Made by a program: the position numbers and the translations under genes
Shown here: piece after piece, positions 11,168-56,427 of the stretch
Layout of the letters: every line of letters starts with the position of its first letter
Position numbering within the stretch: position 1 is the stretch's first letter
Origin: a virus
IMG/VR virus record: IMGVR_UViG_3300012929_000001
Reading direction: 5' to 3' (one strand)
DNA length: 64,000 nucleotides
Notes under the pieces: generated by a model
What the model was told of the DNA's origin: nothing
The model's database searches: none
Seen by the model: only the letters and a program-made list of their open reading frames with translations

Positions 11168-11194
11168 CAAAGCAAGAACGAATGAAAGGAAAAT

Positions 11195-14016: not shown

Positions 14017-14086
14017 TCCCAATTACATACAGCATACAGTAGAGAAGATCGAATTTGCGTTTATTATAGCGAGGCGCGAGCTTTCG

Positions 14087-20700: not shown

Positions 20701-21534
20701 TCCGGTAAGGAACGTTGCCAGGCCCGCGTCGCACGGCGTGACCCGCAGCCCCTCGCCTGGGAACCCCACGTCGGGCACGCCCGTGGCTGGGTCTACCGAT
20801 TCCACCAGAATGGTCTGCGACTTCGCGCAGTGCTTCGCGGGCAGTATGCACCCGCTAGTGGTGGAGCAATTAGTCTTGGCGCAGCCTTGGGCCACTTTAA
20901 TAATGTCGCCACAGGACGCAGTGCTCATGGCCGTGTCCCAGTCAGCGTTGGCCGTACCACACGTGGCTACCCCGCCCGAGTACCCAACCGTGTGCACCAC
21001 GCCGGGCGAGGGCGTGGAGCTGATCGCCGTGTAGTTGCAAATTTTAAACAGGTCCACGGGCCCGTCCGTCGTCACGCCACCTGGGAAAGCCGCCAACTCC
21101 AGCACCGAGCAGTAGCGCGAGTCGTCGCCGCTTAGGATGGCGGCGCTGACGGTGACGTTCGCCGAGGCGCAGGCCGTGCCGAAGGCGTTCTGCGCGCAAA
21201 AAGTGTAGGTGGTGACCGTCGGGCCGGGCGCGGAGAACGGGGGTGTGAAGGCGCTGGTCGGGCTGGCGGGGCACGGGGTCGTGAGCGTCAGGATGCCATT
21301 ATTAATGCTACAGGACGCGGCCCCCGTGACCGTGTAGGCGAGGGTTACCGTCGCCCCCTGCACGGGGAACGCGTTCGACGGGTTGAAGAACGTGACGATG
21401 GGCGCAGAGCCCCCGGTGGAGCCCGTCGCCACGGTGGCTGCCCCGCCGATCGCGTTGCCGCTGCCGCCGGAGCTTTGTGCGAGCGCTGCTGCCGACGCGC
21501 AGAGAAGCGCGAGAACTAGAGTCAATCTTCTCAT
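17794..21534 (-). CDS. Tail fibre/spike protein with a beta-helix-like core, an internal duplicated domain and a C-terminal He_PIG-type Ig domain
   Basis: N-terminal signal-peptide-like MRRLTLVLALLCASAAALAQ. Long Gly/Asn/Thr-rich repeats typical of right-handed beta-helices. C-terminal GSLPTGLTLNAGTGAISGVPTVPGTSTF matches the putative Ig (He_PIG) motif. Confidence 0.7.
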   Translation of the reverse strand: MRRLTLVLALLCASAAALAQSSGGSGNAIGGAATVATGSTGGSAPIVTFFNPSNAFPVQGATVTLAYTVTGAASCSINNGILTLTTPCPASPTSAFTPPFSAPGPTVTTYTFCAQNAFGTACASANVTVSAAILSGDDSRYCSVLELAAFPGGVTTDGPVDLFKICNYTAISSTPSPGVVHTVGYSGGVATCGTANADWDTAMSTASCGDIIKVAQGCAKTNCSTTSGCILPAKHCAKSQTILVESVDPATGVPDVGFPGEGLRVTPCDAGLATFLTGYPDYSADCTARGGPKNRLFKIQSTSATTPALAAYDGNAVIPTCDVTTFPCNQGWRLQGLDLTTVAGTRTSHKLLELAGADHMIADRVFIHCQDDPLFRVECQGGVNFNGTHLSLINSWVGPVMCANAPSGTTCIDSQMVAGGVGPFPQYAHKIVNNFGASAGECWFWGGGQEAYFPTADNPDGVVSDTEVRRNFCMHPLAWFLASQSPAITLTAVNTTGVFTGTIIGGTNNALVGKTFKTSGFTNAANNLAVSLVTASTASTISFAATTVTESGVAAGKATQSEPHWDPKNLGETKSTVRGVWEANVNYYSWQGFQSDQPGAGLLITPKNQSQKLSLSGALSGSVLTGSTSSGLFYINCLKTGVACSSSGGNMFTCGFDPNAIPDWTGTGTAVSSCGEIVAFPCTAGTAAQPGPFTLTSVNTTGVYQGTITGGAANALVGWAVEIKGFVNDANGSSSPKRGVITASTSTSFTISATTVSETHAATAAAISNPQCPGSYVKHCASAGDQTRCAVIVGGLGGTYYHIQQVINSDQVQVVENSTSVVGVVPLAYKRALSPFAVVRDVVVRYGIIAHTANGMQISSAGDDGGSEALGVHEIYVHDMLGYDINSSVFDNNNSCCNNGYWFQTLSGTAVPSTAPSDLNVSHNSVQIIGFTSSHQSGLAGIFDNVCRNPTSGTLCANGVVPMFTSGLTLNNNLAAAALHVTNGSGNFAVNTLAFGLGFYGCAGHDAVTGCNYSVHRNVTLQGIWSGQTTQLPNVNLLGSNTVEACSCTTAAQDPVNGHCTGTPGTPATWAWSAPVGTGSLDACDRAAGYNSVFNNYDPNGGPTNDMQLPSNSPYKGIGFGDGLDLGANVSTVLSDTAGVAYPFVYPTLIIDGFFGNVTCTNGANCVLPAATNGAFYTITLHATAGASPYKRWTVVTGSLPTGLTLNAGTGAISGVPTVPGTSTFSAGVEDAAHQTDTQPYALTVN

Positions 21535-21535
21535 T

Positions 21536-24500
21536 TTAGTGTTGGAACCTCGTCACGAGAAACTCCTGCGGCGTGAAGGTCTCGGTCGCCGCCTGGTTGA
21601 TGCTGAATGTCAGCACGATGGTGCCCGATGTGGTTTGTGTGTAGGTCGTGGGGCCGGGAGAGTTGGTGATCAGGGTGGACCCGCGCTGCCCGCCCTCCTG
21701 GTACAGGTACTGCGTGTTGGCGATGACCGGGTCCTCCATGATGTTCACGTCGAACCGCTGCGACGCGGTGCCGTCGGTGTTGGTGGTCAAGTTAAAGTTA
21801 GAAGCGCTGCCGAATTTCAGCTGCCAGTTGGTAGAGGTAGTCCCAGTCTGGTGGCGGGCGGCGGCCAGGATGTGCACGCCGCAGCCGGGGCAGAACAGGT
21901 TGGCTGGCAGGGTCACCGTGTATAGCGTGGTATCGACGCCGCTCACGGCGGTGACCGCGCTGGTCGTCCCGGGCACCTGGTAGCTGATGACGTCGGGCGG
22001 AGGGGCTGAGGTTTGCGGGGCGATCAGCGCGTACTGCTGCTTCACGATGTTCGAGGCCCCGGTGGCGGAGAGCGCCACGGTGTAGTCGAGGAACAGCGGG
22101 GCGGTGAGGTCGATGTTCGAGCTGACCGCCGTGTTGACGTCGGGGTAGACCGTCGCCGCCGCCGAGACCACGTTCGACAGGTCCACGGCTAGCCCGGGCG
22201 AGCCCTTGACGATCAGGTTGCCGGTGGCTCCCGCCGCGTTGGTCACGGCGCTAACCGTGAAGTTCCAGGGCGCGTTCGTCGTGGCCGAGGCCGAGGCCGC
22301 CCCGCTGGCGATGGCGGAAAGGGGTACCACGGTGCCGCTACCGCAGCCGGAGACGGTGCAGAGCTTGGCCGAAATGGTGATGGTCGGCGAGGACGCGGCC
22401 CCGGTGGAGTAGACGCCGCCGCCGTGGATAACGACGGCCTGCCCCGCCAGGTTCAGGTACCCGCCGGGCAGCGAGAGCTCCGTCAACTGCGTATCAGTGG
22501 CGGCGGTCGGGTTAGTGACGGTGACGGTGGTGGAGGAAGTGATCGCCGCGCCCACAGCGCCGCCTACAGCAGAGATAGCGGTGCTGGTCTGGGCGGTCTC
22601 GCGACCTTTGGCATCAAAAGTAATGACGCAGCTGTGGGTGGCGTCGCCGCAGGACCCGGGGGAACCGACCGAAGCCAAAGTGGTAACCAACGTGCCCGTT
22701 GTGCCAACGTCTCCAGTCAGGTCGGCGTTGGTGATCGACGCTGCGCCGGAGAACTTGGAAAGGTTGCCGCTGGCGGGCGACCCCGTGGTAGTAACGGTCC
22801 CGGCGCCACCGCCCGTCCCAGTCTGCGGGTTCTGCAATTGCCACTCCGTCCCATCATAGACCAATATGGCGATCGCCGTCGTGGTGATGTCGCCAGCCGC
22901 CAGCGCGGCGGTGCCCAGCTTCGTGATTGTCTTCGCGCCCAGCGCGTTGACGTTTAGGGTTGGCGTCGTCGTGGTGTTGGCCAGGTTCGGCAGAATGCGC
23001 ACTTGCAGACCAGTGGTCAGCGAGGCGGGCACAGGCGCGAGCGTGGCGGTAAGTACGTTAACCGCTCCTGCGGCAGCCACATATTGCACGGCAGCAACGT
23101 CTACCGCCGTGGCCACGATGGGTAAATTCGACCCGTTGGTACCAATAAGGTGCGCCGTGGCGGGGAAGCTGCCGACATAGCTAACTGTCCCGCCCGTAAC
23201 GGCGTTGATCGTCGAGCCGTCCGTACCGGAGAGTGTAAGTGTGTTGGTGAGACTAAGCGTCTTACCCGCCGTTGGCGAGAACCCGGTCACGCTAGTGGCT
23301 GAAATGGTCCCAGTCCCGGTAGCTATCAGCGAGCCGCCCGAAGTGATGGATAGCGCATTAGCATTGCCGCCCGTAATGATCTTAGAAAACGAGGTACGGC
23401 AATAGTCGGGTGTGACGCCGTTGGCCGAGCAGAATAAGTCACCCGTGCCGGAGTCGAACGTGGTGAGGTTCTGCCCCGCCACGCCCGCGTGCGTTGCCGC
23501 GCCGAAGGGAGACTGCACGAACCAGCTGCCTGCCCCGGTGGAGATAAATCCGGCAGCGGTTACGGTACCACCGACGACAATGTTTCCTGTGGACTGGTCG
23601 AACGTGAACCCCGAGCTCGCCGCCAGAGCACCACCGAACTTGTACATCACCTGCCCGTTGATGCCGGGGATCGTCGTCGGCGTGCTGGGAATGCACACGC
23701 CGCCGATGCTGTAGCACCCGCTGGCGATGTCGACGTTCGCGGGGAAGTGGACGTTAAAACTCCCATCCACCGTGCTGCCCGTGACCGGGCTCGTCACGCC
23801 GCTGCCGTTGTTGTAAAGGAATTCCGTTGACACGCCCGGAGCCACTATGGCGGCGGCGACAAAGGCTGTTGTGGCGAACTGCGTCGAGCTGGTACCTGGC
23901 GTTGCCGTGGGTCCGCTAGGCACTCCAGTAAAATTCGGCGATGCAAGCGGTGCGCGGGTAGTGTCGATCGGATGTACGTGGTCCTGCCGGGCGTAGAGCA
24001 ACGACGTACCGACGGCAGCGGTGCCGTTGATGAGCGGTGTTGCCGTGCCGACCTGACCCAAGACGAACGCAGTTGTGGCTACTTGCGTCGTGTTAGTGGA
24101 AACGCCGGCCGTGGGCGCTACAGGCGTTCCGGTAAGCGAGGGGCTGGCAGCCAGTGCGACAATCGCGCCCGTTCCCGTCGTCGTGGCGGTCACGATCTGC
24201 CCACTACCATTTGTGCCTAGGACTGTACCGCTGATCGGCATGGTGACGCCGTTTACGCGGGCGACGTTCGGGTTCGGGTAGGTTCCCGTAAGATCACCAC
24301 CTGCCGTGCCGCCCGGGCTCACCCCGGCGGCGATGGCGGCGGTTACGAAAGCCGTAGTTGATAGCTGCGTGGTGTTCGTGCCCGGCGCAGCTGTCGGCGC
24401 AGTCGGTGTACCTAGCAAAGCTGGACTAGTAACGAGCGCCAGCGCACCGGAGCCGCTCGTCGTCGCCGCAACGACAACACCGCCGCCGCCCGTGCTGAGC

Positions 24501-25849
24501 GCAGGGGCGTTCGTAATCGGCGTAGTGATAGTCCCGGTAAAGACGGGGCTCGCAGTCGGGGCGCGGCTGGTGTCGCTGGGATGCACGTGGTCCGCGCGGG
24601 ACGTTAGCAGCGAGGTCCCCGCCGCCGCCGCGCCGTCCATCACGGGCAGCGTCGAGGCCAGCTGGCCCAGGACGTACGCCGTAGTGGCTATTTGCGTCGT
24701 GTTGGTACTTACCGTGGCGTTGGGCGCGGTCGGCGTGCCACTGAGCGCCGGGCTAGCTAGCGGAGCTGCGCCCGTCACCTGCGCTACGGAGTAGTCACCG
24801 CCCGCTGCGACGACTGCTCCTGTACGTCCAAAGACACTGGCCACGGCCTGATTGGCAAGTACGAATGCCGTAGTGGCGAGCTGCGTCGTGTTCGTGCCTA
24901 CAGTCGCCGTCGGCGCGGTCGGAGCGCCGCTGAACGCGGGGCTGGCGGATGGGGCCGCCCCGGTGACCTGGGAAACCGTGTAGTCGCCGATCGCGGCGAT
25001 CACCACGCCAGACCTGCCGAAAACCGACGCGACCGCGCCGCCTCCGCCCGAGCCGCAGTCGATTCCGGTGCCGCTGATTTGGCCCGAAGAGTTGACGTGG
25101 AGGCACTGATTGATGCCGGTAATCGGAAGCGTGATCGTGCCCGTAAACGACGGGTTGAACGAGGGCGCTGCGCCCGTCACCTGCGCCACCGTGTAGTCGC
25201 CCGTCTGCGCCGCCACCGCGCCCGTACGACCGAAGACCGCCGAGACCGCGCCTCCGCCTCCGCCGCTCGTCGATACGCAGGAGAACCGCCCCGTGCCGTC
25301 GGCGAGGCCGTTAAACGCCTGCCCGCTGGGGCAGGTGGAGGCGTAGACGCCGCCCAGCGAGAACGTGCGGGCCGGGCCCAATAGGGCCAGCGCCGCGCCC
25401 GGTATCGACGGCACAAAGCTGTCGAAGTTGCAGATGCCACTCGCGCACCAGCTGTTCGTGGTCTGCGGCTGGACGCAGTTGTACCCGCTACCGGGCCCGC
25501 CGAGGACGACGCGGTTAGAGCCGTCCTTGACAGTTGTGTTAAAGCAGACGTTCATCGGGTTCGTAATCGAGACGTTCGCCAGCTGGCAGCTGCCCGTGAT
25601 CGCCCCGGCGACAATGGAGCAGACGGTCGGGAAGCTGACCAGCTGCCCGCCGCCGCCGACTTGGTAGCCCACGGGGTTCCCGTTCAGGTCCGTGGGCTGG
25701 AAGATGATCGAGCCTGAGGGGAGCGGCTGCGGCTGGCCGCTGAGCGTCGTGAGGATGTTCGACGCCGTCACGGTCATGAAGTTCTGCTGCCCCGGGCAAG
25801 CTACCGAAGAAAGTATCACTAGTGTTAGCAGCGCAAGCAGCTTCTTCAT
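21536..25849 (-). CDS. Giant tail fibre protein with reiterated fibre-collar repeats
   Basis: GGAG RBS and ATGA coupling at 25849. At least six copies of SPxFTGxPTAPTAxxGTNxTQxATTAFV and three copies of VFGRTGAVxAxxGDYxVxQVTGA, as found in P2/Mu-type tail fibres. Confidence 0.85.
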   Translation of the reverse strand: MKKLLALLTLVILSSVACPGQQNFMTVTASNILTTLSGQPQPLPSGSIIFQPTDLNGNPVGYQVGGGGQLVSFPTVCSIVAGAITGSCQLANVSITNPMNVCFNTTVKDGSNRVVLGGPGSGYNCVQPQTTNSWCASGICNFDSFVPSIPGAALALLGPARTFSLGGVYASTCPSGQAFNGLADGTGRFSCVSTSGGGGGAVSAVFGRTGAVAAQTGDYTVAQVTGAAPSFNPSFTGTITLPITGINQCLHVNSSGQISGTGIDCGSGGGGAVASVFGRSGVVIAAIGDYTVSQVTGAAPSASPAFSGAPTAPTATVGTNTTQLATTAFVLANQAVASVFGRTGAVVAAGGDYSVAQVTGAAPLASPALSGTPTAPNATVSTNTTQIATTAYVLGQLASTLPVMDGAAAAGTSLLTSRADHVHPSDTSRAPTASPVFTGTITTPITNAPALSTGGGGVVVAATTSGSGALALVTSPALLGTPTAPTAAPGTNTTQLSTTAFVTAAIAAGVSPGGTAGGDLTGTYPNPNVARVNGVTMPISGTVLGTNGSGQIVTATTTGTGAIVALAASPSLTGTPVAPTAGVSTNTTQVATTAFVLGQVGTATPLINGTAAVGTSLLYARQDHVHPIDTTRAPLASPNFTGVPSGPTATPGTSSTQFATTAFVAAAIVAPGVSTEFLYNNGSGVTSPVTGSTVDGSFNVHFPANVDIASGCYSIGGVCIPSTPTTIPGINGQVMYKFGGALAASSGFTFDQSTGNIVVGGTVTAAGFISTGAGSWFVQSPFGAATHAGVAGQNLTTFDSGTGDLFCSANGVTPDYCRTSFSKIITGGNANALSITSGGSLIATGTGTISATSVTGFSPTAGKTLSLTNTLTLSGTDGSTINAVTGGTVSYVGSFPATAHLIGTNGSNLPIVATAVDVAAVQYVAAAGAVNVLTATLAPVPASLTTGLQVRILPNLANTTTTPTLNVNALGAKTITKLGTAALAAGDITTTAIAILVYDGTEWQLQNPQTGTGGGAGTVTTTGSPASGNLSKFSGAASITNADLTGDVGTTGTLVTTLASVGSPGSCGDATHSCVITFDAKGRETAQTSTAISAVGGAVGAAITSSTTVTVTNPTAATDTQLTELSLPGGYLNLAGQAVVIHGGGVYSTGAASSPTITISAKLCTVSGCGSGTVVPLSAIASGAASASATTNAPWNFTVSAVTNAAGATGNLIVKGSPGLAVDLSNVVSAAATVYPDVNTAVSSNIDLTAPLFLDYTVALSATGASNIVKQQYALIAPQTSAPPPDVISYQVPGTTSAVTAVSGVDTTLYTVTLPANLFCPGCGVHILAAARHQTGTTSTNWQLKFGSASNFNLTTNTDGTASQRFDVNIMEDPVIANTQYLYQEGGQRGSTLITNSPGPTTYTQTTSGTIVLTFSINQAATETFTPQEFLVTRFQH

Positions 25850-42599: not shown

Positions 42600-42646
42600 G
42601 GTAAAATTCTCCTTTACTTGATTTTTATTGCACCCGCAATCCCCCA

Positions 42647-43246
42647 CTACCGGATGCAAAGTTCAGTGATACCGTTGGCGTCCTGCACGGCACGGTAGGT
42701 AAACCGCCCGTCCAAGGCCATCGTGTTACCGCCCGAGGCCGCAGTCTCAAAGCCGCCCTGGACGTGGTTGCCGGAGCTGGCCGCGCACCAAATGAACACC
42801 GCTCCGCCGCGAACCGCGCCCGTGATCGCGCCGTTGCCGAGGACTACGTTGATATAGCCCCAACGCATAACGTCTTGCACGATGGTCTTATTCGGACCAC
42901 CTGAGTTAAACGTCGCCGGGGCGAAGTCCGTCGAAGCCTGCGCCTGCTGCGTCGGGTAAGGACGCACGATGACGCCTTCAATGGAGGTTAGCGCCGTGTC
43001 GCCTGCCAACAGCTTGCGGGGATTATGACTGGTGCCGTCGAGGACGACGGGCTGGCCGAAGAAGGTTGGCGGGTTGGTGGCGTCGAGCTGCATCGGTTCG
43101 ATGGAAACCGGATGCGTACGGTTGACATCGCCCGGGAATCCCGCGCCCATGCGAAACGCGAACGTCGCGTCCCTGGTCCTCATACGGCCTACGTACAGGC
43201 CGCTCTCCGTACGACGGCTGAAGAAATACTTTTTGAAGAAGTTCAT
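42647..43246 (-). CDS. Capsid-associated protein (decoration/cement-like)
   Basis: Lies between the scaffold and major capsid genes. Gly-rich beta-type sequence. Confidence 0.45.
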   Translation of the reverse strand: MNFFKKYFFSRRTESGLYVGRMRTRDATFAFRMGAGFPGDVNRTHPVSIEPMQLDATNPPTFFGQPVVLDGTSHNPRKLLAGDTALTSIEGVIVRPYPTQQAQASTDFAPATFNSGGPNKTIVQDVMRWGYINVVLGNGAITGAVRGGAVFIWCAASSGNHVQGGFETAASGGNTMALDGRFTYRAVQDANGITELCIR

Positions 43247-43322
43247 TGCGAATTCTCCTGTCCTTTCGAGATTTTTTAATCGTTGTAGTGCCTACCGCCG
43301 AGAGTTCGTACGTCGCCGCCTA

Positions 43323-44687
43323 TTACGACTTGTAGCGTTCGGCGTTCGCCTTGTTCAATTCGGCGATGCTCTTAATCTTGCCGGTTACGCCGAGCCCCGC
43401 GCTCGTACGAATCGTGCCCGGGGGAAGCGCAGAGTCGCCCGTGCTGGCGCGAACCGTGCCGTTGTTACGATTTTTGGCGAAGGTACCGACAGCTTGAAAC
43501 AAAGTCCGAACCTCCCCGCACTTCCGCGTTTTCAGGTCATGCCCGTTCAGCAACTCGTCGCGGAACGTCAAGTTGTCGCCCGTCGCCGAATCCAACACAC
43601 GGCGGCGGAAGGCGCAAATGGCGTCCACGGTCTTGCCGGGCTTCGCCTTGGCGTCGAAGGTCGGTACGCCGATGCCCGGAACGATGATCTCGCCCAGGGC
43701 CAGCGCGGCCTGAAAGCTGTCGGCGAAGGGCTTCGAGTCCTTCAGGCCCTTAAACGCAGCGTCGTTGGTTCCGGGCGGCGCTTCGGCCTCGAACTCGATC
43801 TCCTCGTCCTTCGTCTTCTTGTCGTCATCCTCCTCGTCCTCTTCCTCCTCCTCGCGGGAAGCATCGTAGGACCTCTTCATTTCCTTGACGTCCTTGGACA
43901 CGCTGTCGATGGCGTCCTCGACCTTGTTGAAGCGAGCATCTATGGCCGCATCTCGAGTTTTCTTCTTATCGTCCTCTTCCTCTTCCTCTTCAGATTCGGC
44001 ATCGCGGGTGCGGCCCGCAGAATGGACGTGGACGTGCGTGGCGGTTGCGCCGTTCTCCGGCAATTCGTCGAGAACGGCAGTCATGGCACCTTCATCCTTC
44101 TTCTTAAAGGCGTCCAAGATTCTGTCTTTCAGGCTTTTCATTTCTGGCTCCTTTACAGTTTGTCGGTCTCCAATTGCACAGCGCGGCCCGCAACGGCCAC
44201 TTTCCACGAGAGCTACATGATTACCAATAATGTTTACTTGGCGACCCCTGCCGGGTTCGGTCTCTATGTAGTCCGCATCATAACCGCAACTAACTTCGCG
44301 TTTACCTCCTAAAATTCTCTGGATCGTCTGTGCGTCCTTGACGATGATGTCGGCGAACAAGACGTCGTCCGCAGCACCCGAACCACGACGCGGGTGCAGC
44401 ACCTGCCCTTTTTCCAGATTGAACCAGTTCGTAGGATTCACATCCTCGTACGGGTGTTCATCCACGAAAGACTTGCCATTAAAGGAGGCAATTGTCTCCG
44501 CTCGAAAAACCTCTTCCGGGTTGCGATCGATTCGCGAAATCCCGTCCGGTCCCGCCGATACAGGCGTCTCGTTAGGTCCATAAATCTGCGTCCCCGTGCG
44601 AGCAATGGGGACGTCTTCAATCAATAAGTAGCCTTCCGGCGTACGCGATTGCTTCGGCCCAAGCTGCTCAGTGGTGTAAAAACGCAT
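43323..44687 (-). CDS. Scaffolding / prohead core protein (DUF2213-like)
   Basis: PEGYLLIEDVPIARTGTQIY...FNGKSFVDEHP...REVSCGYDADY matches the DUF2213 pattern. Two acidic EEEEEEDD tracts. TAATG coupling at 44687. Confidence 0.7.
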   Translation of the reverse strand: MRFYTTEQLGPKQSRTPEGYLLIEDVPIARTGTQIYGPNETPVSAGPDGISRIDRNPEEVFRAETIASFNGKSFVDEHPYEDVNPTNWFNLEKGQVLHPRRGSGAADDVLFADIIVKDAQTIQRILGGKREVSCGYDADYIETEPGRGRQVNIIGNHVALVESGRCGPRCAIGDRQTVKEPEMKSLKDRILDAFKKKDEGAMTAVLDELPENGATATHVHVHSAGRTRDAESEEEEEEDDKKKTRDAAIDARFNKVEDAIDSVSKDVKEMKRSYDASREEEEEDEEDDDKKTKDEEIEFEAEAPPGTNDAAFKGLKDSKPFADSFQAALALGEIIVPGIGVPTFDAKAKPGKTVDAICAFRRRVLDSATGDNLTFRDELLNGHDLKTRKCGEVRTLFQAVGTFAKNRNNGTVRASTGDSALPPGTIRTSAGLGVTGKIKSIAELNKANAERYKS

Positions 44688-47320
44688 TAGTGAATACCTA
44701 TGTTCTGCGGGACGAACTGGTAGGCTCCTATGTCCCACGTCGCCCCGCGAGCGTTCCCCGCCATGTCGATGTTGTAGGGCGAGCCGAGGTTCGCGCCCGC
44801 GTGCACGGTGGGCGAATTGACCGTCGGGCGGAAGTCCATCTCCGCGCCCGTAGCCAGGGCGGGGCAGGTGTAGAAGCTGCCGGGCACGAAGCTACCCGTG
44901 TATCCAACACCGACGGGCGGTGTGATGGGCAATTGGTTACAGGCCAACAACAAATTCATAAGCTGCGTGTTCGATTTAAACGTCGCCCCAGCGGAGAGCA
45001 TTACCTTCAGTTCGTTCTGCACTTGGTCCGGGGGAAGCTCGTACAGGTGCATAAAGAAGCCCATCGGGTTACCCCACGCCGCGTCCTTCCACAAATAGTT
45101 CAACATATAGCGGCGCATCGCGTCGTAGGAGAGATTCTGCAAATTAGGCACGGTGCCCTGGCTGGTCATGTCGAATACGTTGTACCCGTTGGCCAGCGTG
45201 GTTGTGTTGCCGCAGCAGGGCTTGGATGAGCCCGTGCCGCGAATGCCCTTATAGCCGAGCCCCGCCAGGATCACCTGCGTCTGCGGGTCGGAGAACATGA
45301 ACGGCATTACCGCTACGCGGTTCACTGGAAGCCCGGTAAAGTTCGCGTTCAGCCATTTCTGCGCCTGGTCGAACTCCACCAGTTCAAAGTTGTGCTCGTC
45401 GTATAGAACCGAGTACGGGGCGCCCCAAATATCCTGGTTAGATACATCCGCCAGCGAGAACATGCGCGACGCGCCCTTCACGGCGGAATTCTGATAGGCC
45501 ACCAGACCCAAAGTAAAGCAATTGCCGCGCCCCAACAGCGCCGAGATAGCGTTGGATACCGTGTCGATCTGCGTCAGTCCCGGTACGCCGCCCGGATCGA
45601 CGGGCTTCAGGTTCCAGCTAACGTCGCACGCCGCGTCGTCGGGGAAAGTAGAAATGGTAAGCGTGCCGCCGCCCACGCCGTCATGAGTAACCGTCAGATG
45701 CGCCTGCGTCGCGACAGTGCCCGAATATTGAATCTTGAACACGTCGCAAGGCACCCCTCCCGGGTTGTCACTACACGCGCCCGAAGCGCCCCCGGTAAAC
45801 GCGGGCGGTGCTGTATACCCATGTGAATTGGAGTGCGAGTTGGGATCGGCGGAACCCGCGTTAATCCAGCCTTGTACTACGGGAATCGCTGCTGGGGAGT
45901 ACGTCTGCCCGGTTACCACAGCAACGGACGGCGTAATGCCTATGGCGTTAATTAGCGGCAGCAGCGTCCCCAGGTATTCGCACGAATATTGCACCAGACC
46001 GCAATCGTCGAAGGTCCAGGTGACCAGCGCGGGCCAGCGCTTCCAGTTCATTATCCATGGCGGCGTTAGAGCGACAACGTCGTGTGCAGCTGCGACAGGT
46101 ACGGTAGCGCCCGCTCCGGCCCCGAAGTCCGTTTCCAGCGATATACCCAGATTATTTCCGTAGAAGTGGCAGTAGTCGTGCGTCAGCACGCCTGCGCCCG
46201 TAACGTTAGAAACCAATCCGAAAAGCCGGTTCCCGTAGGCCCGGCAATTCTGAAGATCAAACAGGCACCCATTACATCCCGTAACGGCCCCGAACTCGAA
46301 GCCGTCGTAGTTCATGTCAGCGTCGACGTTCCAAAGGTGGATGTCCGTGGCAGCGGTGAGGTTGGCCCAGAAGCCCAGCTGCGAGTACTGCGCCCCGAAA
46401 ATAGTCTCGCCGTTCTCCACCATCGAATTGGCCGCGCCGTTCGCGATCCAGATGTGGTCGGAAGCGTCGCTGATCGTCAGGCCCAGGGAGTCGTACCAGT
46501 CCAGCTGGAAGTGCTGCACTTGTAGCCACTGCGCGTTCTTAATGCTGATCAGTGTCGAGCCGCCATTCGTCGGCGTCTGCTCGCCCGAAATCGCTATTGG
46601 AACCACGGCCCCATAGGCCGTCGCCGGATTGCCACCCGAAGAATAGACGGTTAAAGTCTGCGTGCAGCCGTGGGCGCAGGTGCAGATGCCGGTAACCAGG
46701 TCGCAGTCGAGCGGGTTGAAGCCGGGGTCGAAGTTCCAGTCGTAATTCTGCGCGGGCGTAGTGCCGACGCCACGGTTGGAGCCGAAGACCTTCGCGAACC
46801 GGACCTTGTTCAGCACCTGTAGCGGCTGGTCCAGGCAGGCGTTGAACAGCGAGCCGTAGCACTTTACACAATTCGCGAGCGCCCCGCAGTGCGTCGTACC
46901 GTCGGGGTTCACCGCGTACAGCACAGTTTGCCAAAGGTTGCCCGACGAGTTCGTCCAGAACCCGGCGGCGACTGGCAGCTGGCCGCTGAAGTGGAACGCG
47001 GCGGTGCCGGGCGTGACCGGGAGCCCGTTCACCAGGCTGTAGGTGTCGTACAGGATGGGGTGCCCGCTCGTGCCGCTACTGGAGATCACCAGCCCCGATT
47101 GCCAAACGCAGCCGTCCGTGCGGAAGTAGACGTGGTCGTCGGGATTGAAGTGCGTCGTGTTGCTGTAGACCGTGGCCTGCAACGGACGCCGCCAGGGCCG
47201 CGTGAACGAGGTACCCGGGTTGGTGTCCCCCGTCGTGGCGTAGCAATCCACATAGAAGTTCGCGCCCCAGCAGGCTGCGGACGTAAGCAGAATCAAGGCC
47301 AGCAAAAATAGCCTGCTCAT
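44687..47320 (-). CDS. Secreted-type beta-helix protein with a CE4 (NodB) polysaccharide deacetylase-like domain
   Basis: Signal peptide MSRLFLLALILLTSAACWG. Beta-helix-like middle region. WTFDDCG and HSNSH match CE4 motifs 1 and 2, with FFMH as a possible motif 5. ATGA coupling at 47320. Confidence 0.6.
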   Translation of the reverse strand: MSRLFLLALILLTSAACWGANFYVDCYATTGDTNPGTSFTRPWRRPLQATVYSNTTHFNPDDHVYFRTDGCVWQSGLVISSSGTSGHPILYDTYSLVNGLPVTPGTAAFHFSGQLPVAAGFWTNSSGNLWQTVLYAVNPDGTTHCGALANCVKCYGSLFNACLDQPLQVLNKVRFAKVFGSNRGVGTTPAQNYDWNFDPGFNPLDCDLVTGICTCAHGCTQTLTVYSSGGNPATAYGAVVPIAISGEQTPTNGGSTLISIKNAQWLQVQHFQLDWYDSLGLTISDASDHIWIANGAANSMVENGETIFGAQYSQLGFWANLTAATDIHLWNVDADMNYDGFEFGAVTGCNGCLFDLQNCRAYGNRLFGLVSNVTGAGVLTHDYCHFYGNNLGISLETDFGAGAGATVPVAAAHDVVALTPPWIMNWKRWPALVTWTFDDCGLVQYSCEYLGTLLPLINAIGITPSVAVVTGQTYSPAAIPVVQGWINAGSADPNSHSNSHGYTAPPAFTGGASGACSDNPGGVPCDVFKIQYSGTVATQAHLTVTHDGVGGGTLTISTFPDDAACDVSWNLKPVDPGGVPGLTQIDTVSNAISALLGRGNCFTLGLVAYQNSAVKGASRMFSLADVSNQDIWGAPYSVLYDEHNFELVEFDQAQKWLNANFTGLPVNRVAVMPFMFSDPQTQVILAGLGYKGIRGTGSSKPCCGNTTTLANGYNVFDMTSQGTVPNLQNLSYDAMRRYMLNYLWKDAAWGNPMGFFMHLYELPPDQVQNELKVMLSAGATFKSNTQLMNLLLACNQLPITPPVGVGYTGSFVPGSFYTCPALATGAEMDFRPTVNSPTVHAGANLGSPYNIDMAGNARGATWDIGAYQFVPQNIGIH

Positions 47321-48495
47321 TGCAGGAGCACCATCGGCACCACCGCACCGCGCGAGGGCGCGTCCGTAGGCGGCGTGCACCCGCCGTTCAGGGTGCCACC
47401 TGCGGTGACGGGCTGATCGGCGATGGCATTGTAGAACGACCACTGCCCGTTCCCCGAGCTTCCGCTAAAGGCAGCGCACGACGCGCCACAGCTAGTAGTG
47501 ATAGCGAGGTAGTAGTCCGCGATCTGTAGCACAACCGGCGAGCCCACTACCGTGCAGTTCTTGGTCCCTGTGGAGGGCGCGAACGTCGTGCCCGCCGTTG
47601 CCCCGCAGTGCGCTATCAAATTGCAAGAGCGGTCCATCAACCCTATGTCATAGGTATTCGCCGTGTTATCCACCGTGCCCACGTCGTAGTAAATCTTGGT
47701 CAGCGTCTTGCGGAACGGGAGCGTAACACCCCAAATGCGCATCTTGTTAGCCACAACACTGGGAACAATGGTAGTCGCCGAGCCCCAAACGTTCCCGATT
47801 GCCCACGCCGCCGCGTAGGGGCCATTCACCGAGAGCGTCGCGCCCGAGTTCTCATTGAACATGGGGTAGTGCGTGACCGAGTCGCCCCAAAGGTTTAAGT
47901 TTGCCGCTAGCGCGACTATCCCGGTAGTCTCCGTAATGGTCAGCACGCCGGGCGTAGAGCAGACAGCGTTAAAACTGGCATCCACGCCGCGCGAGACCGA
48001 GCCAGAGCAAAGTGTCGGCGTGTTCTTGGCCCCCAACGCCGTCGTAGCCGTGCCCGTCGTGTCCGAGTTCAAAAACGCGAGGATCTGCGGCGCTCCCGTG
48101 TTCCAAGAGAACTCCGGCACCGCCGAGCCGCTCACCGTGGCGAAGCCTATAGTCGCGTGCCCCGCCGTCGAAGAGACCGCGCCGGAGTAGACGCCCGTCA
48201 GCGGTGCCCCCCCGTTGGAGCAGCTCCACGCCCCGGCTACGCCCGTGGCAACGGCCCCGGTACCAAAGGCGGCACAGGGTATGGTCTGCGAGCAGTCGGA
48301 GCAGAATATCGTCAGCCCGTCCAACTCCGCCGGAAGCGAGCCGAACGTCACGGGGCCGTCGGTGTGTCCAGCGGTGAATCGATTCGTACCAGTAAAATTG
48401 TTGTTAGTGTCCGTCGCAGGGAAGACGTGCGTCTGCGCCTGCGCGCTAACCAGCGTAGCAAACAGCAGCAATAAAATTGCAAATATGTTGCGCAT
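47317..48495 (-). CDS. Secreted-type fibre-like protein
   Basis: Signal peptide MRNIFAILLLLFATLVSAQAQT. DTNNNFTGTNRF is a motif common in fibre proteins. Confidence 0.55.
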   Translation of the reverse strand: MRNIFAILLLLFATLVSAQAQTHVFPATDTNNNFTGTNRFTAGHTDGPVTFGSLPAELDGLTIFCSDCSQTIPCAAFGTGAVATGVAGAWSCSNGGAPLTGVYSGAVSSTAGHATIGFATVSGSAVPEFSWNTGAPQILAFLNSDTTGTATTALGAKNTPTLCSGSVSRGVDASFNAVCSTPGVLTITETTGIVALAANLNLWGDSVTHYPMFNENSGATLSVNGPYAAAWAIGNVWGSATTIVPSVVANKMRIWGVTLPFRKTLTKIYYDVGTVDNTANTYDIGLMDRSCNLIAHCGATAGTTFAPSTGTKNCTVVGSPVVLQIADYYLAITTSCGASCAAFSGSSGNGQWSFYNAIADQPVTAGGTLNGGCTPPTDAPSRGAVVPMVLLQ

Positions 48496-48496
48496 T

Positions 48497-50407
48497 CTAG
48501 TAACCAAACAGCGCGAAGCTGATAATATCATTCACGACAACTCCCGTGCAACTAAGTACGGCGGTGGTTGTCGTACTGGAGGAAACGCGGCAAGTCGAAA
48601 CGGCAGGAGTTTGAGTCTGGTTGGTCACTGGGCCAGTCCAACCGTTGGGGGAAGTACCAGTATTGTTGATCGTAATTGTCGTGCTGCAAGTGCCGGTCGC
48701 CCCGTTGGTAAACTTCCCCACGGAAGCCCCACCAGTTAAAGCCGAGTCCGTGCACCCTGCGCTACTAGTGAACGGTGTGCCGACGGAAATGTACGCCGCC
48801 GCCTTCAATCGCCCGTTCGTGTTGCAGGAAGCTCCGTTACCCACCGAAACCACCCCAGGGGCGTTCTTGCACAGCGCGGTGTCGGCGTTCATCGTGGCGG
48901 CGTTCAGCACCGTCGTGCTGCTGCCCCAAGTCAACACGCCCGCCGAGTTCATGCCCAGCTGCGCCGTGCCCGTCGTAGACAGCGCGAACATATCAGTGGA
49001 AGTCGTACCGTAAACCCAGGCCCCGGCAGTGACCGTGGAGCCGTAGTAGCGCCCGAACGCCTGCGTCGTGAGCCGGTCCGAGGGCAGCGCCTGCGTGCCG
49101 TCGGGCAGCTGGATCGCGTTGGAAATCACGATCGGGTTCCCTGTAGTTCCGGCCACCGATGGAGCTACAAGAGTCGCCGTGCCAGAAGTCGTACCCGCTA
49201 GCGCCAGCGTGCCGTTCGCGCTGCCCGCAACACCGATAGTTAAGGTCGTGGTCCCGTTCGTCGTCAGCCCGGCAGCCACCTTGGCAGCCTGACCGCCCTG
49301 CCCCAGCACGATGCTGTTGGAGGTCAGAGTGCTGCCTGCCGTGACGCAAGTCGCGCACCCTAAGTTGCCCGCCGCGCTCAGCGTGACCGGGGCAGTGACG
49401 GCAGAGGGGATGGTGCCACCAGTAGTGGGGCCAGTAAGCGTGACAGTGCCCGCGTTAGCTCCCGGGACAATCACTAAAGGGTTAGCCGTGGCTCCAGCTA
49501 TATTGATGGAAATTTGGCCAGTGGAGGCGGCGGCTCCGGCAATGGTAAGAGTTCCTTGCGTCGTGTTCTGAATTCCCAGCGTGGGCGTTGGAGTAAACGC
49601 CCCGGTCGCACCGTTTGGAACCTGGCCAGCGGTCCCGGACAGGGAAATAGCTCCGGCAGCAGAAACGGCCACGGGGGCCGTACCTGATAACGCCCCGCCG
49701 TTGGTTGTAGTGGCGCAGGTGGCGCAGGAAATAGCCCCAGCAGCGGAAACGGCCAACGCACCGGTGCCTGACAGCCCCGCGCTGCCGACGGCACCAATCG
49801 GCAACTGCCCGCTAACGTCGGCAGCCAAGGCCACAAGGGAACTGGTTACGGTCTGCGTAGACCCGGCGAAGTGGGCAACACCCACGCCCGGGGCCGAAGC
49901 CACAACGCAGGTGGCGCAGGCCAGAGTTCCCGTGGTGGTGATAGGCCCGCCAGTGATCGGCGATGTCGTAGCTACGCTGGTTACCGTGCCGCTGCCACCG
50001 CTGCTTCCACCCTGGCGAGCGTTACTAAAGGCGGCGTTAACGGTGATGCTCGGGTTTGTGCCTCCGGTAAAGGTCGCGGTGACAATGTAGTGGGTATAAA
50101 ACTTCGTCACCGCCGCCGTCACCATCGCCGCCGCCGTTGAAGTGTTTGTGAGCCCGGCAATGGCGTCGCAGGTCGGCACGCTGGGGTTAGCGTTGGTTCC
50201 CTTACCGCAGCCCTGCACTGTAATACTTACCGTGGCGGGGCTGCCGTTCGGGATTTCCTCGAAGGTAGGGTTAAAGGTACCGTAAAGATTCTGAATATCT
50301 GCGGTACCTCCGCTGGCGCTAATCGTGTAGGTTTTATTGATCGTCGTTTGCGCAGAGGCAAACGGAGCCAACAACAACGCGAACGCCAACAAGATTCGAT
50401 TTTTCAT
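48497..50407 (-). CDS. Secreted-type fibre-like protein with reiterated CATC motifs
   Basis: AAAGGAG RBS. Signal peptide MKNRILLAFALLLAPFASAQT. Three copies of a G(T/A)(L/I)xCATC(V/A) unit. Thr/Gly/Ala-rich throughout. Confidence 0.6.
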   Translation of the reverse strand: MKNRILLAFALLLAPFASAQTTINKTYTISASGGTADIQNLYGTFNPTFEEIPNGSPATVSITVQGCGKGTNANPSVPTCDAIAGLTNTSTAAAMVTAAVTKFYTHYIVTATFTGGTNPSITVNAAFSNARQGGSSGGSGTVTSVATTSPITGGPITTTGTLACATCVVASAPGVGVAHFAGSTQTVTSSLVALAADVSGQLPIGAVGSAGLSGTGALAVSAAGAISCATCATTTNGGALSGTAPVAVSAAGAISLSGTAGQVPNGATGAFTPTPTLGIQNTTQGTLTIAGAAASTGQISINIAGATANPLVIVPGANAGTVTLTGPTTGGTIPSAVTAPVTLSAAGNLGCATCVTAGSTLTSNSIVLGQGGQAAKVAAGLTTNGTTTLTIGVAGSANGTLALAGTTSGTATLVAPSVAGTTGNPIVISNAIQLPDGTQALPSDRLTTQAFGRYYGSTVTAGAWVYGTTSTDMFALSTTGTAQLGMNSAGVLTWGSSTTVLNAATMNADTALCKNAPGVVSVGNGASCNTNGRLKAAAYISVGTPFTSSAGCTDSALTGGASVGKFTNGATGTCSTTITINNTGTSPNGWTGPVTNQTQTPAVSTCRVSSSTTTTAVLSCTGVVVNDIISFALFGY

Positions 50408-50434
50408 GCACAATCTCCTTTCCGCTCGCAAGAA

Positions 50435-50962
50435 CTAAGCGCCCAGTTGCGTGTTCCACTTGCCCGTGACCATACAGAAAAACTCGCAGGTCTTTCCAGC
50501 AGCAACAGCGAATGGAGTTTGCACGGCAAGTGCGTTGATGATGTCGGTAGTACCCTTAGGGTACACATTCATCGAGGCCGCACCCGAGTTGTTTACCGCT
50601 ACGTTCGTACCCGCGATCGCCGCCGGAAGCACAGAGGAGTCGCCGCCCGTGGCCACGGTATCAAACCGCGCGAACAGCGTCGCGATCGGCGTCGCGCCAG
50701 GCTGCCCACCGCCCGCCAGCGCCACCAGGCCCGCCGCGCTCGACGCCAACTGGTAACTGATAATCGCCTGCCCCGCGCCGGGAGCCGAGGGCAGGAGCTG
50801 CACGTATTGAATCTCCGAGTACGACGGAGCCCCGTCGCGCGTGCGCGCGCGACCGCGCGGAATTGTTGGAAGCGAAATGTGGTTCGGCTTAACTAAGTGT
50901 GTAGGCCGCGAACGATCCTCTGAGACGAAAAACTTTTGGTAAATGCGGTTAAGCCATTTCAT
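50435..50962 (-). CDS. Hypothetical protein
   Basis: 175-aa ORF between the MuF-like gene and the fibre-like genes. Confidence 0.45.
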   Translation of the reverse strand: MKWLNRIYQKFFVSEDRSRPTHLVKPNHISLPTIPRGRARTRDGAPSYSEIQYVQLLPSAPGAGQAIISYQLASSAAGLVALAGGGQPGATPIATLFARFDTVATGGDSSVLPAAIAGTNVAVNNSGAASMNVYPKGTTDIINALAVQTPFAVAAGKTCEFFCMVTGKWNTQLGA

Positions 50963-50974
50963 TGTAGTGCCTCC

Positions 50975-51757
50975 TTAAATCAAATCTGGTATAATTGGTT
51001 CCGGCACACAACGACAATTGTAGATTGCGCCGGGTAAAGCACGTTCCCCGTTCTCACCCGCCACGGGCGGATCATCCCAGGCGAAAGCCTTTCCTTCGAG
51101 TTCACGATGCAGCCTGCGCACGTCGGAGTCCCGCGCCGTACGCCAAATAAAGTGCGTCGAGCCCACGAACTTAGCCCGCGCCGCCGTAAGGTTGGTCGTC
51201 GTGCGAGCGACCTCGGTGCGGGCGATCAGGTTCGCCCGCGATTTAGTCACGTGCCCCGTGCGCAGTATCTCCTGTGCTACGCTCTCCGCTCGTGTGCCTC
51301 GGCTAATCCCCTCCAGCGTTAGTTTATGCACCCGCTCGGCGGCGTCCCGGGGAAGGGAGGTGATGAGGTCGACCTGCGCCTGCATGGCGGCCTTCAGCGT
51401 CTCGCCCACTGGACTTTGCCGTATCTCCTTTGCCAGCGCCCGGCCCATGCGGTCTCCCGCCTGCGCCCACGCCGTCGCGTCCCGCCGCGAGACCTCCGCC
51501 ACCATACGCCCCGCCACGGCCTTAGCCCACGGTGCCAAAATGCGCCCGTACGCCATCAGCGTTTCACGCAGCAGAAAGAAATCTTCCAGCGTGCCCGTCG
51601 GCGCAAAGCCGCGTATGATCTCCCCCACTACACGCGCAACCTGTCGCAGTTGCGCCCCGTAGTCACCCTCCACGCGCCGCGCTTTAGCCCAGCGTTCGCG
51701 GTCCTGTAGGCGCTGCGCGCGCGGCGTCAAGATGCGATCTATGGTGAGCATATTCAT
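50975..51757 (-). CDS. Head morphogenesis protein (Mu F / SPP1 gp7 family)
   Basis: C-terminal FIWRTARDSDVRRLHRELEG...LPGAIYNCRCVPEP is the Phage_Mu_F signature. Confidence 0.75.
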   Translation of the reverse strand: MNMLTIDRILTPRAQRLQDRERWAKARRVEGDYGAQLRQVARVVGEIIRGFAPTGTLEDFFLLRETLMAYGRILAPWAKAVAGRMVAEVSRRDATAWAQAGDRMGRALAKEIRQSPVGETLKAAMQAQVDLITSLPRDAAERVHKLTLEGISRGTRAESVAQEILRTGHVTKSRANLIARTEVARTTTNLTAARAKFVGSTHFIWRTARDSDVRRLHRELEGKAFAWDDPPVAGENGERALPGAIYNCRCVPEPIIPDLI

Positions 51758-51840
51758 TTTTTATGCATACAAAAACGATACATAACGATTGCTATTACAA
51801 CCCAAAATGCCAAAGCCGCGAAATACCTTACGTTTAACAT
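51754..51840 (-). CDS. Micro-ORF encoding a 28-aa hydrophobic peptide
   Basis: MLNVRYFAALAFWVVIAIVMYRFCMHKK. Its stop is ATGA-coupled to the MuF-like start. Confidence 0.25.
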   Translation of the reverse strand: MLNVRYFAALAFWVVIAIVMYRFCMHKK

Positions 51841-51939
51841 TTTAGTAAGCGCCCGAGACGGTTTTAAGTCCAGCCCGACCCGCCTCCGTCTCGAGCGCCC
51901 GCGTTTCCCCGCCATGCCATAGCGAGGAACTTGGGAAAA

Positions 51940-52521: not shown

Positions 52522-52522
52522 G

Positions 52523-55989: not shown

Positions 55990-56427
55990 CTACTCCACAC
56001 CACTGCCGGAACTGATGCGTTGGCGTTGAACGCAGGTGCCCTTGTAACAGTTTCCCCTTTGCGTATCCATGGTCTCGCTGGCATTGCTACCCCCGCTGTT
56101 AAACGAACCCGTTAGCACACCGTACATGTTTGTACCCGTAAAGGTTCCCGAGAATTTTCCGGCGAAGTCCTTATAGGTTACCGTCCCGCCATCGGCGCGG
56201 GTGATCAGCACTTCCCCGGCCTTAAAGCTGTTATCCGGCTGGAGCGTAAACCAGAAGCCAATCCATCCCACTTGCACACCTTTTTCGAACAGCGGCGCAC
56301 TCGAACAATAGCGAGAGTGGAAAGTCAAGTTGTAGGAGCACACGGCGACTCCGTTAGTAAACGAAGTTTGCGCGTGCGCTACGAAATTAAACAGCGCCAA
56401 GAACACGAGAAGAAACAGTTTTCGCAT
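55990..56427 (-). CDS. Small secreted protein
   Basis: Signal peptide MRKLFLLVFLALFNFVAHAQT. Beta-rich mature part containing 4 Cys. Confidence 0.55.
   Translation of the reverse strand: MRKLFLLVFLALFNFVAHAQTSFTNGVAVCSYNLTFHSRYCSSAPLFEKGVQVGWIGFWFTLQPDNSFKAGEVLITRADGGTVTYKDFAGKFSGTFTGTNMYGVLTGSFNSGGSNASETMDTQRGNCYKGTCVQRQRISSGSGVE

Follow-up and report, generated by a model that had tools for sequence, protein, structure and literature searches.

The viral record IMGVR_UViG_3300012929_000001 was analyzed over a stretch of 64,000 nucleotides (the window), which represents 64 kb of a 72.6-kb metagenome contig (ENA ERZ27253148); all negative statements on gene content refer to these 64 kb. In the head-assembly module of this phage, four open reading frames (ORFs) spanning about 6.3 kb, all on the minus strand, lie between the genes for a MuF-like minor head protein (50975..51757; PF04233, E 1.4e-19; phrog_324) and a DUF2213 scaffold (43323..44687; PF09979, E 2e-50), which form the upstream and downstream borders, respectively. 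Gene A (50435..50962; 175 amino acids, aa) lacks a signal peptide and encodes a putative head-associated spike or decoration protein. Gene B (48497..50407; 636 aa) encodes a predicted exported-type, fibre-like protein, and gene C (47317..48495; 392 aa, or 404 aa from an alternative ATG at 48531) a predicted exported-type protein that ends in a tail-fibre-tip domain. Gene D (44687..47320; 877 aa), also predicted to be of the exported type, combines a beta-helix with a CE4-like deacetylase. An earlier sequence-only reading of this DNA had placed four ORFs between the same borders, and its coordinates agree with the ORF calls and both Pfam matches.

The genes are packed tightly. Direct reading shows that the MuF stop codon overlaps an AGGAGG located 7 nt ahead of the ATG of A, with a gap of 12 nt between the two genes. 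The gap between A and B is 27 nt and contains AGGAG, with GGAAAGGAGA inside it, 7 nt 5' of the B start codon, and the gap between B and C is a single nucleotide. Genes C and D overlap by ATGA at 47317-47320, and the scaffold gene is start-coupled to D by TAATG at 44685-44689; both overlaps, proposed previously as translational coupling, are read directly in the sequence. No promoter-like or terminator-like excess was found across the locus. The tight spacing, the Shine-Dalgarno sequences or overlapping start and stop codons, and the fact that no promoter or terminator signals stand out inside the locus show that B, C, and D are translated from the late head operon, in line with the suggested co-expression with the head genes.

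The exported-type assignment is based on a rule that requires a basic n-region, an uncharged hydrophobic core of 7-15 residues, and small residues at positions -3 and -1. This rule, a heuristic and not a trained predictor, was applied to every ORF of the window and to every internal start, and it picks just six full-length proteins: B, C, D, a 145-aa protein without a family match encoded between the terminase and portal genes (55990..56427, minus strand), and two large proteins from the tail region, G1 and G2. The start of gene A has no signal-peptide features under the same rule. The predicted signal peptide of B (50351..50407, minus strand; MKNRILLAFALLLAPFASA↓Q) has K2 and R4, a 13-residue core, and the cleavage site ASA↓Q; that of C (MRNIFAILLLLFATLVSA↓Q) has R2, a 13-residue core, and VSA↓Q (or AQA↓Q); and that of D (MSRLFLLALILLTSAACWG↓A, 47264-47320) has R3, a 13-residue core, and CWG↓A. 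Shine-Dalgarno sequences or translational coupling put translation at such signal-peptide starts. Among 133 fetched homologues (13 from the D family and 120 from the B family), 97 pass the rule, and a looser rule with a cleavage-site guess flags 85 members of the B family. The D homologues start with signal peptides, except for the N-terminally truncated P0008, as do the majority of B homologues, and N-termini of this type recur as a class across unrelated phage types. The initial suggestion of Sec signal peptides on three of the four proteins is thus upheld by the presence of all three regions in B, C, and D and by family conservation, and these peptides appear to be cleavable and of the Sec type. 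A lipoprotein reading of D was rejected: there is no proper lipobox (in the sequence S-A-A-C, position -3 is a Ser), and Cys is missing at this place from most D homologues. No lipobox [LVI][ASTVI][GAS]C was seen in B and C, which have no Cys near the cleavage site, and B, C, and D are 392-877 aa long, as opposed to the small proteins of the Llp/Cor type. A plus-strand ORF with a signal-peptide-like start (MKILAVMTLLAVVALSE...) is present at 63740-64000 and runs past the window end.

The cysteine statistics of the six signal-peptide proteins are also distinctive. Their Cys content is 1.5-3.5%, compared with 0-1.7% in the other 25 phage proteins examined, and the number of Cys residues after the predicted cleavage site is even in six cases out of six (4 in the 145-aa protein, 14 in B, 12 in C, 24 in D, 20 in G1, and 42 in G2). 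Even counts prevail in the B family (67/85, p 4e-8) and in the D family, where Cys residues were counted from the conserved mature N-terminus with its YYVDC motif (60/80, p 4e-6; 51/54 among members with at least 14 Cys). The same holds for a giant protein encoded next to D-like genes (38/43, p 1e-7). Control cytoplasmic families, that is, terminase, portal, capsid, HipA_2, and DUF3037, show no such bias. Even, paired Cys residues point to disulfide bonds and, by a further step that we infer, to folding outside the cytoplasm. Most likely, B, C, and D are exported and disulfide-bonded in the periplasm, as judged from these sequence features.

Scans against Pfam, PHROG, and NCBIfam gave nothing for A, B, and C, while D had no PHROG match and no Pfam match even at E-values up to 1. 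The first search with D yielded 13 proteins including D itself, and three relatives contain Beta_helix and/or Polysacc_deac_1 domains; PF01522 is matched by the homologues P0011 to P0013, not by D, and P0011 also matches PF13229. The beta-helix region of D comprises residues 21-395 (46136..47260, minus strand). A D-family profile matches the GH136 lacto-N-biosidase over the first 100 or so residues only (E 4e-14), and its match to a chitin deacetylase from PDB is weak (E 0.078). In the AlphaFold2 (AF2) model of D, of moderate quality (predicted local distance difference test, pLDDT, 64.5), a beta-helix at approximately residues 60-390 is followed by an alpha/beta domain. The top Foldseek matches are GH136 enzymes, glycosidase BT_1002, and K1 capsule lyase, with low TM-scores of 0.14-0.24 for GH136. 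The profile match, the model, and the Foldseek results agree with the beta-helical character proposed for this protein from sequence inspection. The CE4/NodB-like region covers residues 430-790 (44951..46033, minus strand) and contains TFDD at residues 436-439 (D438-D439 at bases 46004-46009) and HSNSH at residues 496-500 (bases 45821-45835). These correspond to CE4 motif 1, with its catalytic and metal-binding Asp, and to motif 2 (H[ST]xxH), with its metal-binding His. Residues D438, D439, H496, S497, and H500 are invariant in an alignment of 11 sequences, and R..VMP-like and G.F.H.NEL-like stretches, conserved in the family, are candidates for CE4 motifs 3-5. There is also a weak, sub-threshold match to the choice-of-anchor Q domain, which marks extracellular proteins. 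D is probably a beta-helix carbohydrate-active module fused to an active metal-dependent deacetylase; in the structural model, the beta-helix looks glycosidase-like or lyase-like.

Protein B has the composition of a fibre, with 14 Cys, 57% S+T+G+A, and only 2.2% K+R. Some of its 191 homologues contain Peptidase_S74, K1-lyase_C, or Gly_rich_2 domains, Peptidase_S74 being the intramolecular chaperone of endosialidase-type fibres. Residues 20-133 of B (50009..50350, minus strand) form a clade-specific N-domain that is 84% identical to the counterpart protein B' (P0020) in L022, the closest relative found (its portal is 79% identical), and 41-47% identical to those in L032, L036, and L186. At the loci examined this domain is found only beside A-type genes, and in L186 it stands alone as a 138-aa signal-peptide protein. 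The DNA homology between the window and L022 stops at a Gly/Ser linker near residue 131 of B, and the distal part differs. The adjacent segment, residues 134-220 (49748..50008, minus strand; GSGTVTSV...PITGGPITTTGTL), is widely shared: it is covered by about 90-100 of 121 B homologues, and most of the 191 share just these approximately 85 residues, at 70-85% identity. Both the composition and the homologues favour the earlier description of B as fibre-like, and its sequence suggests a clade-specific N-domain joined to an exchangeable distal part. Signal-peptide relatives of B are also encoded at the tail ends of other phage genomes, just ahead of the lysis genes (L011 and L014).

Similar building blocks are seen in C and in the tail region. 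The last 170 or so residues of C (220-392; 47320-47838) have counterparts at the C-terminal ends of 47 proteins, most of them without signal peptides and several with tail-fibre collar motifs; by sequence, C ends in a tail-fibre-tip domain. The canonical tail fibre of the window phage (247 aa, 26069-26812) has no signal peptide and is followed by G1 (21536..25849, minus strand; 1437 aa), a signal-peptide fibre with at least five copies of the collar motif SPxFTGxPTAPT...TQLATTAFV, which is common to G1 and the canonical fibre. G2 (17794..21534, minus strand; 1246 aa) is a signal-peptide protein with a He_PIG Ig-like C-terminus. G1 and G2 form a second exported-type cluster resembling receptor-binding proteins, at 17794-25849. 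The collar motif of G1, the tip of C, and the S74 and K1-lyase_C domains in the B family suggest that the exported-type proteins are assembled from parts of receptor-binding proteins. At the same time, since the phage also encodes the canonical tail fibre, which has no signal peptide, they need not be the adsorption device.

Gene A belongs to a different category. Its C-terminal domain of about 105 residues has 2054 representative relatives and 292 IMG/VR hits, often in 2-6 tandem copies, and corresponds to no Pfam family. It is modelled (residues 70-175; 50438..50755, minus strand) with AF2 pLDDT >90 over most of its length. A Foldseek search matched it to a domain of the tailspike gp83 of Acinetobacter phage Solidus (E 2e-4), KP1 baseplate proteins, and T4 gp9, and weakly to the Pa223 capsid spike (E 0.03). 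There were also 131 BFVD hits, some labelled as tail fibres; many matches are uncharacterised phage proteins. In the model, this domain is a beta-sandwich of the kind seen on phage fibres and spikes. The cement/decoration models PF22758 and PF23982 do not match A, and a BLASTP comparison of A with the cement protein of the window was not significant.

A link between A and the head is provided by its N-terminal leader, which ends in RARTRD (50834..50851, minus strand). The corresponding motif [RK]x[RK]TxD occurs six times in the window, all within 41442-54649 and each time in a head protein: at residue 24 of the capsid protein, 21 of cement, 38 of A, 241 of the scaffold, and 13 and 506 of the portal. 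Shuffles predict 0.13 copies, none of 2000 reached six, and the other 26 proteins have no copy. The 27-residue leaders of A (in its L030 version) and cement agree in length and key residues, and leader-less cement homologues begin exactly after the motif position. The second portal copy directly precedes the C-terminal InPase domain, which may thus be cut off. We consider [RK]x[RK]TxD a candidate site of head-maturation cleavage or targeting. For phage Pa193, the DUF2213 protein is described as a putative and possibly cleaved scaffold, and the model of the cement protein starts at residue 1 (PMC11456595); hence, heads of this type do not generally lose such a leader.

Synteny supports the same assignment. 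A-like genes lie between the MuF and scaffold genes in L022, L023, L098, L100, L032, L184, and L186 and between the portal and MuF genes in L030, while in L036 the MuF, A, and B genes stand together at a new position after the head-completion genes. Dozens of contigs from unrelated phages have one A-like gene with a single domain, located just upstream of scaffold-like and capsid-like genes, which were recognized by position, size, and recurring N-termini, not by annotation. The leader motif is absent from B, C, and D. Given the leader shared with capsid and cement proteins and the head-module synteny, A appears to be a head protein, presumably a capsid-associated spike or decoration protein whose leader would be used or removed during head maturation. 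In L022, an extra 205-aa ORF (7032-7630), absent from the window, lies between the MuF gene and A and might be an insertion of the homing-endonuclease type.

The sequence-only reading had treated the four genes as one insertion into a place where the MuF and scaffold genes are normally adjacent. We surveyed 71 loci with a MuF gene upstream of a DUF2213 scaffold gene. The gap between them ranges up to 8.1 kb (median, 727 nt; lower quartile, 112 nt), with 90% of gaps not exceeding 2.8 kb, so that adjacency is the rule for a part of the group only; the 6.3 kb of the window is among the three largest gaps. An A-like gene is present in 8 of the 71 gaps and a signal-peptide ORF in 12. The two border genes are adjacent in Elizabethkingia phage EKP1 and in L017, while in Klebsiella phage KpV79 they are separated by 1.3 kb of small opposite-strand genes. 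The order in L022 is already MuF-A-B'-scaffold, which argues for a resident gene A beside a variable slot and not for a single four-gene insertion. The content of the slot varies indeed. In L245 it holds three signal-peptide genes (520, 268, and 828 aa), the last with GH54-like and GDSL/SGNH esterase-like domains; in L236, signal-peptide proteins of 1086 and 220 aa; and in L032, an 8-kb set. Large signal-peptide proteins with carbohydrate-binding-type domains are encoded in L032 and L036. By comparison of these sequences, the locus is a recurrent cargo slot next to a resident gene, with C and D specific to the window phage. Of the proposed insertion, then, B-D remain as variable cargo, while A is excluded by its leader and synteny, and no meaningful direct or inverted repeats flank the cassette. 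Composition was not used as evidence of foreign origin, as the flat GC skew over the cassette is accounted for by few charged residues. The idea of a mobile receptor-binding or enzymatic cassette fits B-D well: the distal part of B has been swapped, and the tip of C and the D family occur in other phage types. Had relatives routinely carried the same genes as known structural head components, the notion of an unusual insertion would have lost its ground; relatives do often have A and a B-type gene here, yet neither has been recognized as a structural component.

The D family leads beyond this group of phages. In metagenomes, D relatives are found in tail-type regions or just upstream of the terminase genes of unrelated phage-like elements. 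In species-representative genomes, full-length relatives that are 31-43% identical to D occur in 154 stretches, and the best 80 of these loci are all from Acidobacteriota, mostly metagenome-assembled genomes (MAGs) of Terriglobales or Acidobacteriaceae. The gene order is the same in 74-80 of the 80 loci listed (L102-L181, e.g., L174 1-22319): a regulator-like gene, a DSPc phosphatase, a signal-peptide protein of about 1850 aa, and the D-like signal-peptide protein, followed by terminase, HipA_2, DUF3037, portal, a protease-like gene, and capsid. Such an element may represent a prophage family of very wide distribution, or else a domesticated element that produces particles. Every D homologue with examined context has a phage or phage-like setting. 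Another example of clustered cargo is L013 (MAG GCA_040384245.1, a 47-kb contig), where seven consecutive signal-peptide genes at 6598-15194, including GH18 and GH16, follow, on their upstream side, a 983-aa gene and further large genes taken for the tail region; a PHROG scan of these tail-end genes gave no hits. In L016, the 630-aa large terminase (4226-6118) contains a stretch from CLALGT to THNS that looks like an intein.

ORF and family scans reveal a complete late region on the minus strand of the window. Its head genes, identified by Pfam and PHROG, encode small and large terminase subunits, a portal of the Phage_portal_3 type with the C-terminal InPase domain, MuF, the DUF2213 scaffold, cement, and the major capsid protein. 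The tail genes encode the sheath, tube, tape measure with a transglycosylase domain, hub, baseplate J, a DUF2612 protein, and the 247-aa fibre, and thus a contractile tail. An M15 peptidase and a papain-like protease represent lysis-related genes; the latter, a papain-family cysteine protease (14386-15204; PF00112, E 1.3e-12) at the far end of the late region, lies about 1 kb past the M15 peptidase gene and is unusual for a phage lysis neighbourhood. At 9514-12274, genes for a TET-associated glycosyltransferase, a 5-hmdU DNA kinase, and a thymidylate-synthase-like protein stand side by side in what looks like a thymidine hypermodification cluster; genes for DNA polymerase A, a PD-(D/E)XK nuclease, an SNF2 helicase, and a NUDIX protein are nearby. 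The window also encodes a primase/helicase-like protein, and no integrase or repressor domain was detected among its scanned proteins. With its own DNA polymerase, primase/helicase-like protein, and hypermodification cluster, and with no integrase found, the phage looks virulent.

It is an uncultured soil myovirus, and its host is probably an acidobacterium. The full-length D relatives in Acidobacteriota, mostly in MAGs of Terriglobales and Acidobacteriaceae, make Terriglobales the likely host group, and the G+C content of 55-65% and the AGGAG Shine-Dalgarno sequences of the phage fit such a host. The cultured phage collection gave no match to the locus DNA or to the A, B, and D proteins. A separate observation is that Gln occupies position +1 (A↓Q) after the predicted cleavage site in five of the six signal-peptide proteins (B, C, G1, G2, and the 145-aa one, but not D) and in most B-family members (P0014-P0133). 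A '+1 Gln rule' has been described for Bacteroidota. A Bacteroidota host, raised by this feature, was ruled out, as AGGAG precedes many genes and the D relatives listed from species-representative genomes are all from Acidobacteriota; here, Gln is found at +1 although the apparent host is an acidobacterium that uses Shine-Dalgarno sequences.

What B, C, and D do once made is a matter of weighing several scenarios. We tentatively favour one, at somewhat less than even chances, in which they are late proteins that are exported to bind and modify glycans, with the envelope polysaccharide of the host as their target. Translated from the late head operon, they would pass through Sec, fold with disulfide bonds in the periplasm, and have their target in the capsule or exopolysaccharide of a host that probably belongs to Terriglobales; their site of action would be extracytoplasmic, and they would not be incorporated into heads inside the cell. 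By binding polysaccharide and deacetylating or degrading it late in infection and after the burst, they would clear or mask the receptor and matrix, so that progeny are neither trapped nor re-adsorbed. Free or envelope-directed factors are favoured by the cargo of sister phages, rich in glycosidase/esterase pairs, by the many neighbouring signal-peptide genes that are small or plainly enzymatic, and by the tail fibre without a signal peptide that the virion already has. A number of points weigh against this scenario. B evolves like a virion receptor-binding protein, with a conserved N-domain and swapped distal modules, which is not expected of free factors; neither B nor G1 has a recognisable enzyme domain, and free fibres would compete with virions for the receptor; and how they would cross the outer membrane is not evident. 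The Pfam CE4 model does not pick up D itself, and its structural model is of moderate quality with low TM-scores; the signal-peptide calls are heuristic. Finally, placement in head and tail operons, as well as the conserved occurrence of D-like genes alongside a phage-like element in at least 74 species of Terriglobales, fits a particle-linked role at least as well.

These points lead to another scenario, which we regard as possible but rather unlikely: B, C, and D, together with G1 and G2, would be virion fibres or spikes that mature in the periplasm and dock when holin and endolysin merge the compartments or just after the burst, B attaching via its clade-specific N-domain to the head or to A. 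It would account for the receptor-binding modules (collar motifs, the fibre-tip domain, and S74 and K1-lyase_C in family members), the conserved N-domain of B with its swapped distal part, the restriction of this domain to the vicinity of A-type head genes and its single stand-alone occurrence in L186, the joint relocation of the MuF, A, and B genes in L036, the scaffold-coupled position in structural operons, and the conserved D-like and giant signal-peptide genes beside the terminase of the Terriglobales element. Moreover, T4 tail fibres are added last, and fibreless particles can be completed in trans. On the other hand, we know of no tailed phage with virion proteins that pass through Sec; literature searches for tail fibres or other virion proteins of phages that bear signal peptides were unsuccessful, and the paper on Tunturi acidobacterial phages makes no mention of signal peptides or of tail fibres. 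To dock only at lysis or later seems inefficient, the phage already has a tail fibre without a signal peptide, and several cargo genes of sister phages encode small proteins or plain glycoside hydrolases, not fibres. Between the window and L022, the knob of A is 54% identical and the N-domain of B 84% identical, which argues against tight co-evolution of A and B. A further scenario, host-benefit cargo (auxiliary metabolic genes, AMGs, or morons), in which secreted carbohydrate-active enzymes (CAZymes) feed or protect the host, a role suggested for the CAZymes of soil viruses, and have no part in the particle or its spread, seems improbable. Acidobacteria are rich in secreted CAZymes, D is of the carbohydrate esterase type by motifs and profile, and GH18 and GH16 are among the neighbours in L013. 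Phage CAZymes with signal peptides are a known minority class, SignalP signal peptides being found on about 5% of 64,678 catalogued prophage CAZymes (PMC13507307). Against this stand the coupling to late head genes with no separate promoter or terminator signals, the virulent appearance of the phage with no integrase found, the fibre modules of B and C, which are not metabolic enzymes, and the phage or phage-like settings of all D homologues with examined context. Head fibres or whiskers had also been proposed. In the classical form, assembled in the cytoplasm, with hydrophobic N-termini that do not serve export and are perhaps retained as anchoring helices, they are very improbable. Head fibres exist in other phages, such as phi29, and the head-module position, the scaffold coupling, the head-associated appearance of the neighbouring A, and the Pa223 capsid spike among its fold matches are consistent with them. 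They fit poorly, however, with three-region signal peptides that have short 13-residue cores and are conserved across unrelated phage types, and with family-wide even Cys counts that point to extracytoplasmic disulfides; B-D also lack the leader motif of A, cement, and capsid, and proteins of the same kind are encoded at the tail end of the window genome. The action of exported factors on host envelope polysaccharide thus remains the scenario that we favour, with the reservations given above.

Comparison with known systems shows partial similarities only. D resembles tailspike depolymerases and deacetylases in being a phage-encoded protein with a beta-helix and a carbohydrate esterase, in its modular evolution, and in having K1 lyase among its fold matches. 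Tailspikes, however, have an N-terminal virion adaptor, whereas D has a predicted Sec signal peptide and a head-operon position; the esterases of tailspikes are of the SGNH or other types, whereas D has CE4 and 24 paired-looking Cys residues. With virion tail fibres, B-D have in common the shaft and tip modules and the combination of a conserved N-terminal part with a variable distal part, while they start with signal peptides, are located in the head operon, and match no PHROG tail-fibre family. PelA and PgaB are periplasmic, Sec-exported bifunctional enzymes with a glycoside hydrolase-type domain and a CE4 deacetylase that act on surface polysaccharide. D is likewise predicted to be an exported two-domain protein with hydrolase-like and CE4 parts, but its beta-helix is GH136-like and not GH153 or GH166, it is encoded by a phage and not in an exopolysaccharide operon, and the sequence relationship is limited to the CE4 motifs. 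On sequence grounds, D is thus a demonstrated member of neither the tailspike nor the PelA/PgaB group.

Other phage proteins use host export signals, as B-D are predicted to do, and act on the envelope of the infected cell, namely Llp of T5, Cor, Lom and Bor of lambda, signal-peptide and signal-arrest-release (SAR) endolysins, and spanins. Some of them are encoded next to receptor-binding genes and block or destroy receptors. All these proteins are small, and none is fibre-like or beta-helical, whereas B-D are large, modular, devoid of a lipobox, and encoded in the head operon. The secreted CAZyme AMGs of soil viruses and prophages are, as here, virus-encoded, a minority of them with signal peptides (PMC13507307); they differ in that the genes considered here are coupled to structural genes of a virulent-looking phage and accompanied by fibre modules. 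The hallmarks of morons and lysogenic conversion genes, an own promoter and terminator and a temperate phage, were not seen in the window. Gene A, in turn, resembles capsid decoration and spike proteins and proteins with capsid-targeting leaders (T4 internal proteins; E217 and Pa193 cement) in its position, leader, and distal beta-sandwich, and differs from the decoration and cement families in matching no Pfam or PHROG family. In the literature, we found no description of large, modular, disulfide-rich, receptor-binding-like proteins with export signals within head and tail operons.

Structural operons of tailed phages are assumed to encode proteins that are assembled in the cytoplasm. In the phage described here and in many related uncultured soil phages, such operons also carry genes for large receptor-binding-like proteins with export signals and paired Cys. 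Hence, caution is needed in annotation pipelines that name such genes tail fibres or metabolic CAZymes from position or domain content alone. The analysis has also yielded [RK]x[RK]TxD as a candidate head-maturation motif and, in gene A, a new and very common phage domain, usually encoded just upstream of scaffold- or capsid-looking genes. If the exported proteins were to join virions after export, the textbook picture of phage assembly would change: a class of soil phages would export accessory fibres and spikes via Sec and attach them after lysis, in an extracytoplasmic last assembly step, with head-linked fibres formed by B, perhaps carrying C and D, and with G1 and G2 as extra tail fibres. 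We hold this to be a speculative outcome, with the chances against it. If the proteins are free or directed to the envelope, as we tentatively prefer, they would be phage tools of a new class, used to clear or mask capsule and exopolysaccharide, with relevance to the movement of phages through the polysaccharide-rich colonies formed by Acidobacteria, a soil phylum that is major but little studied.

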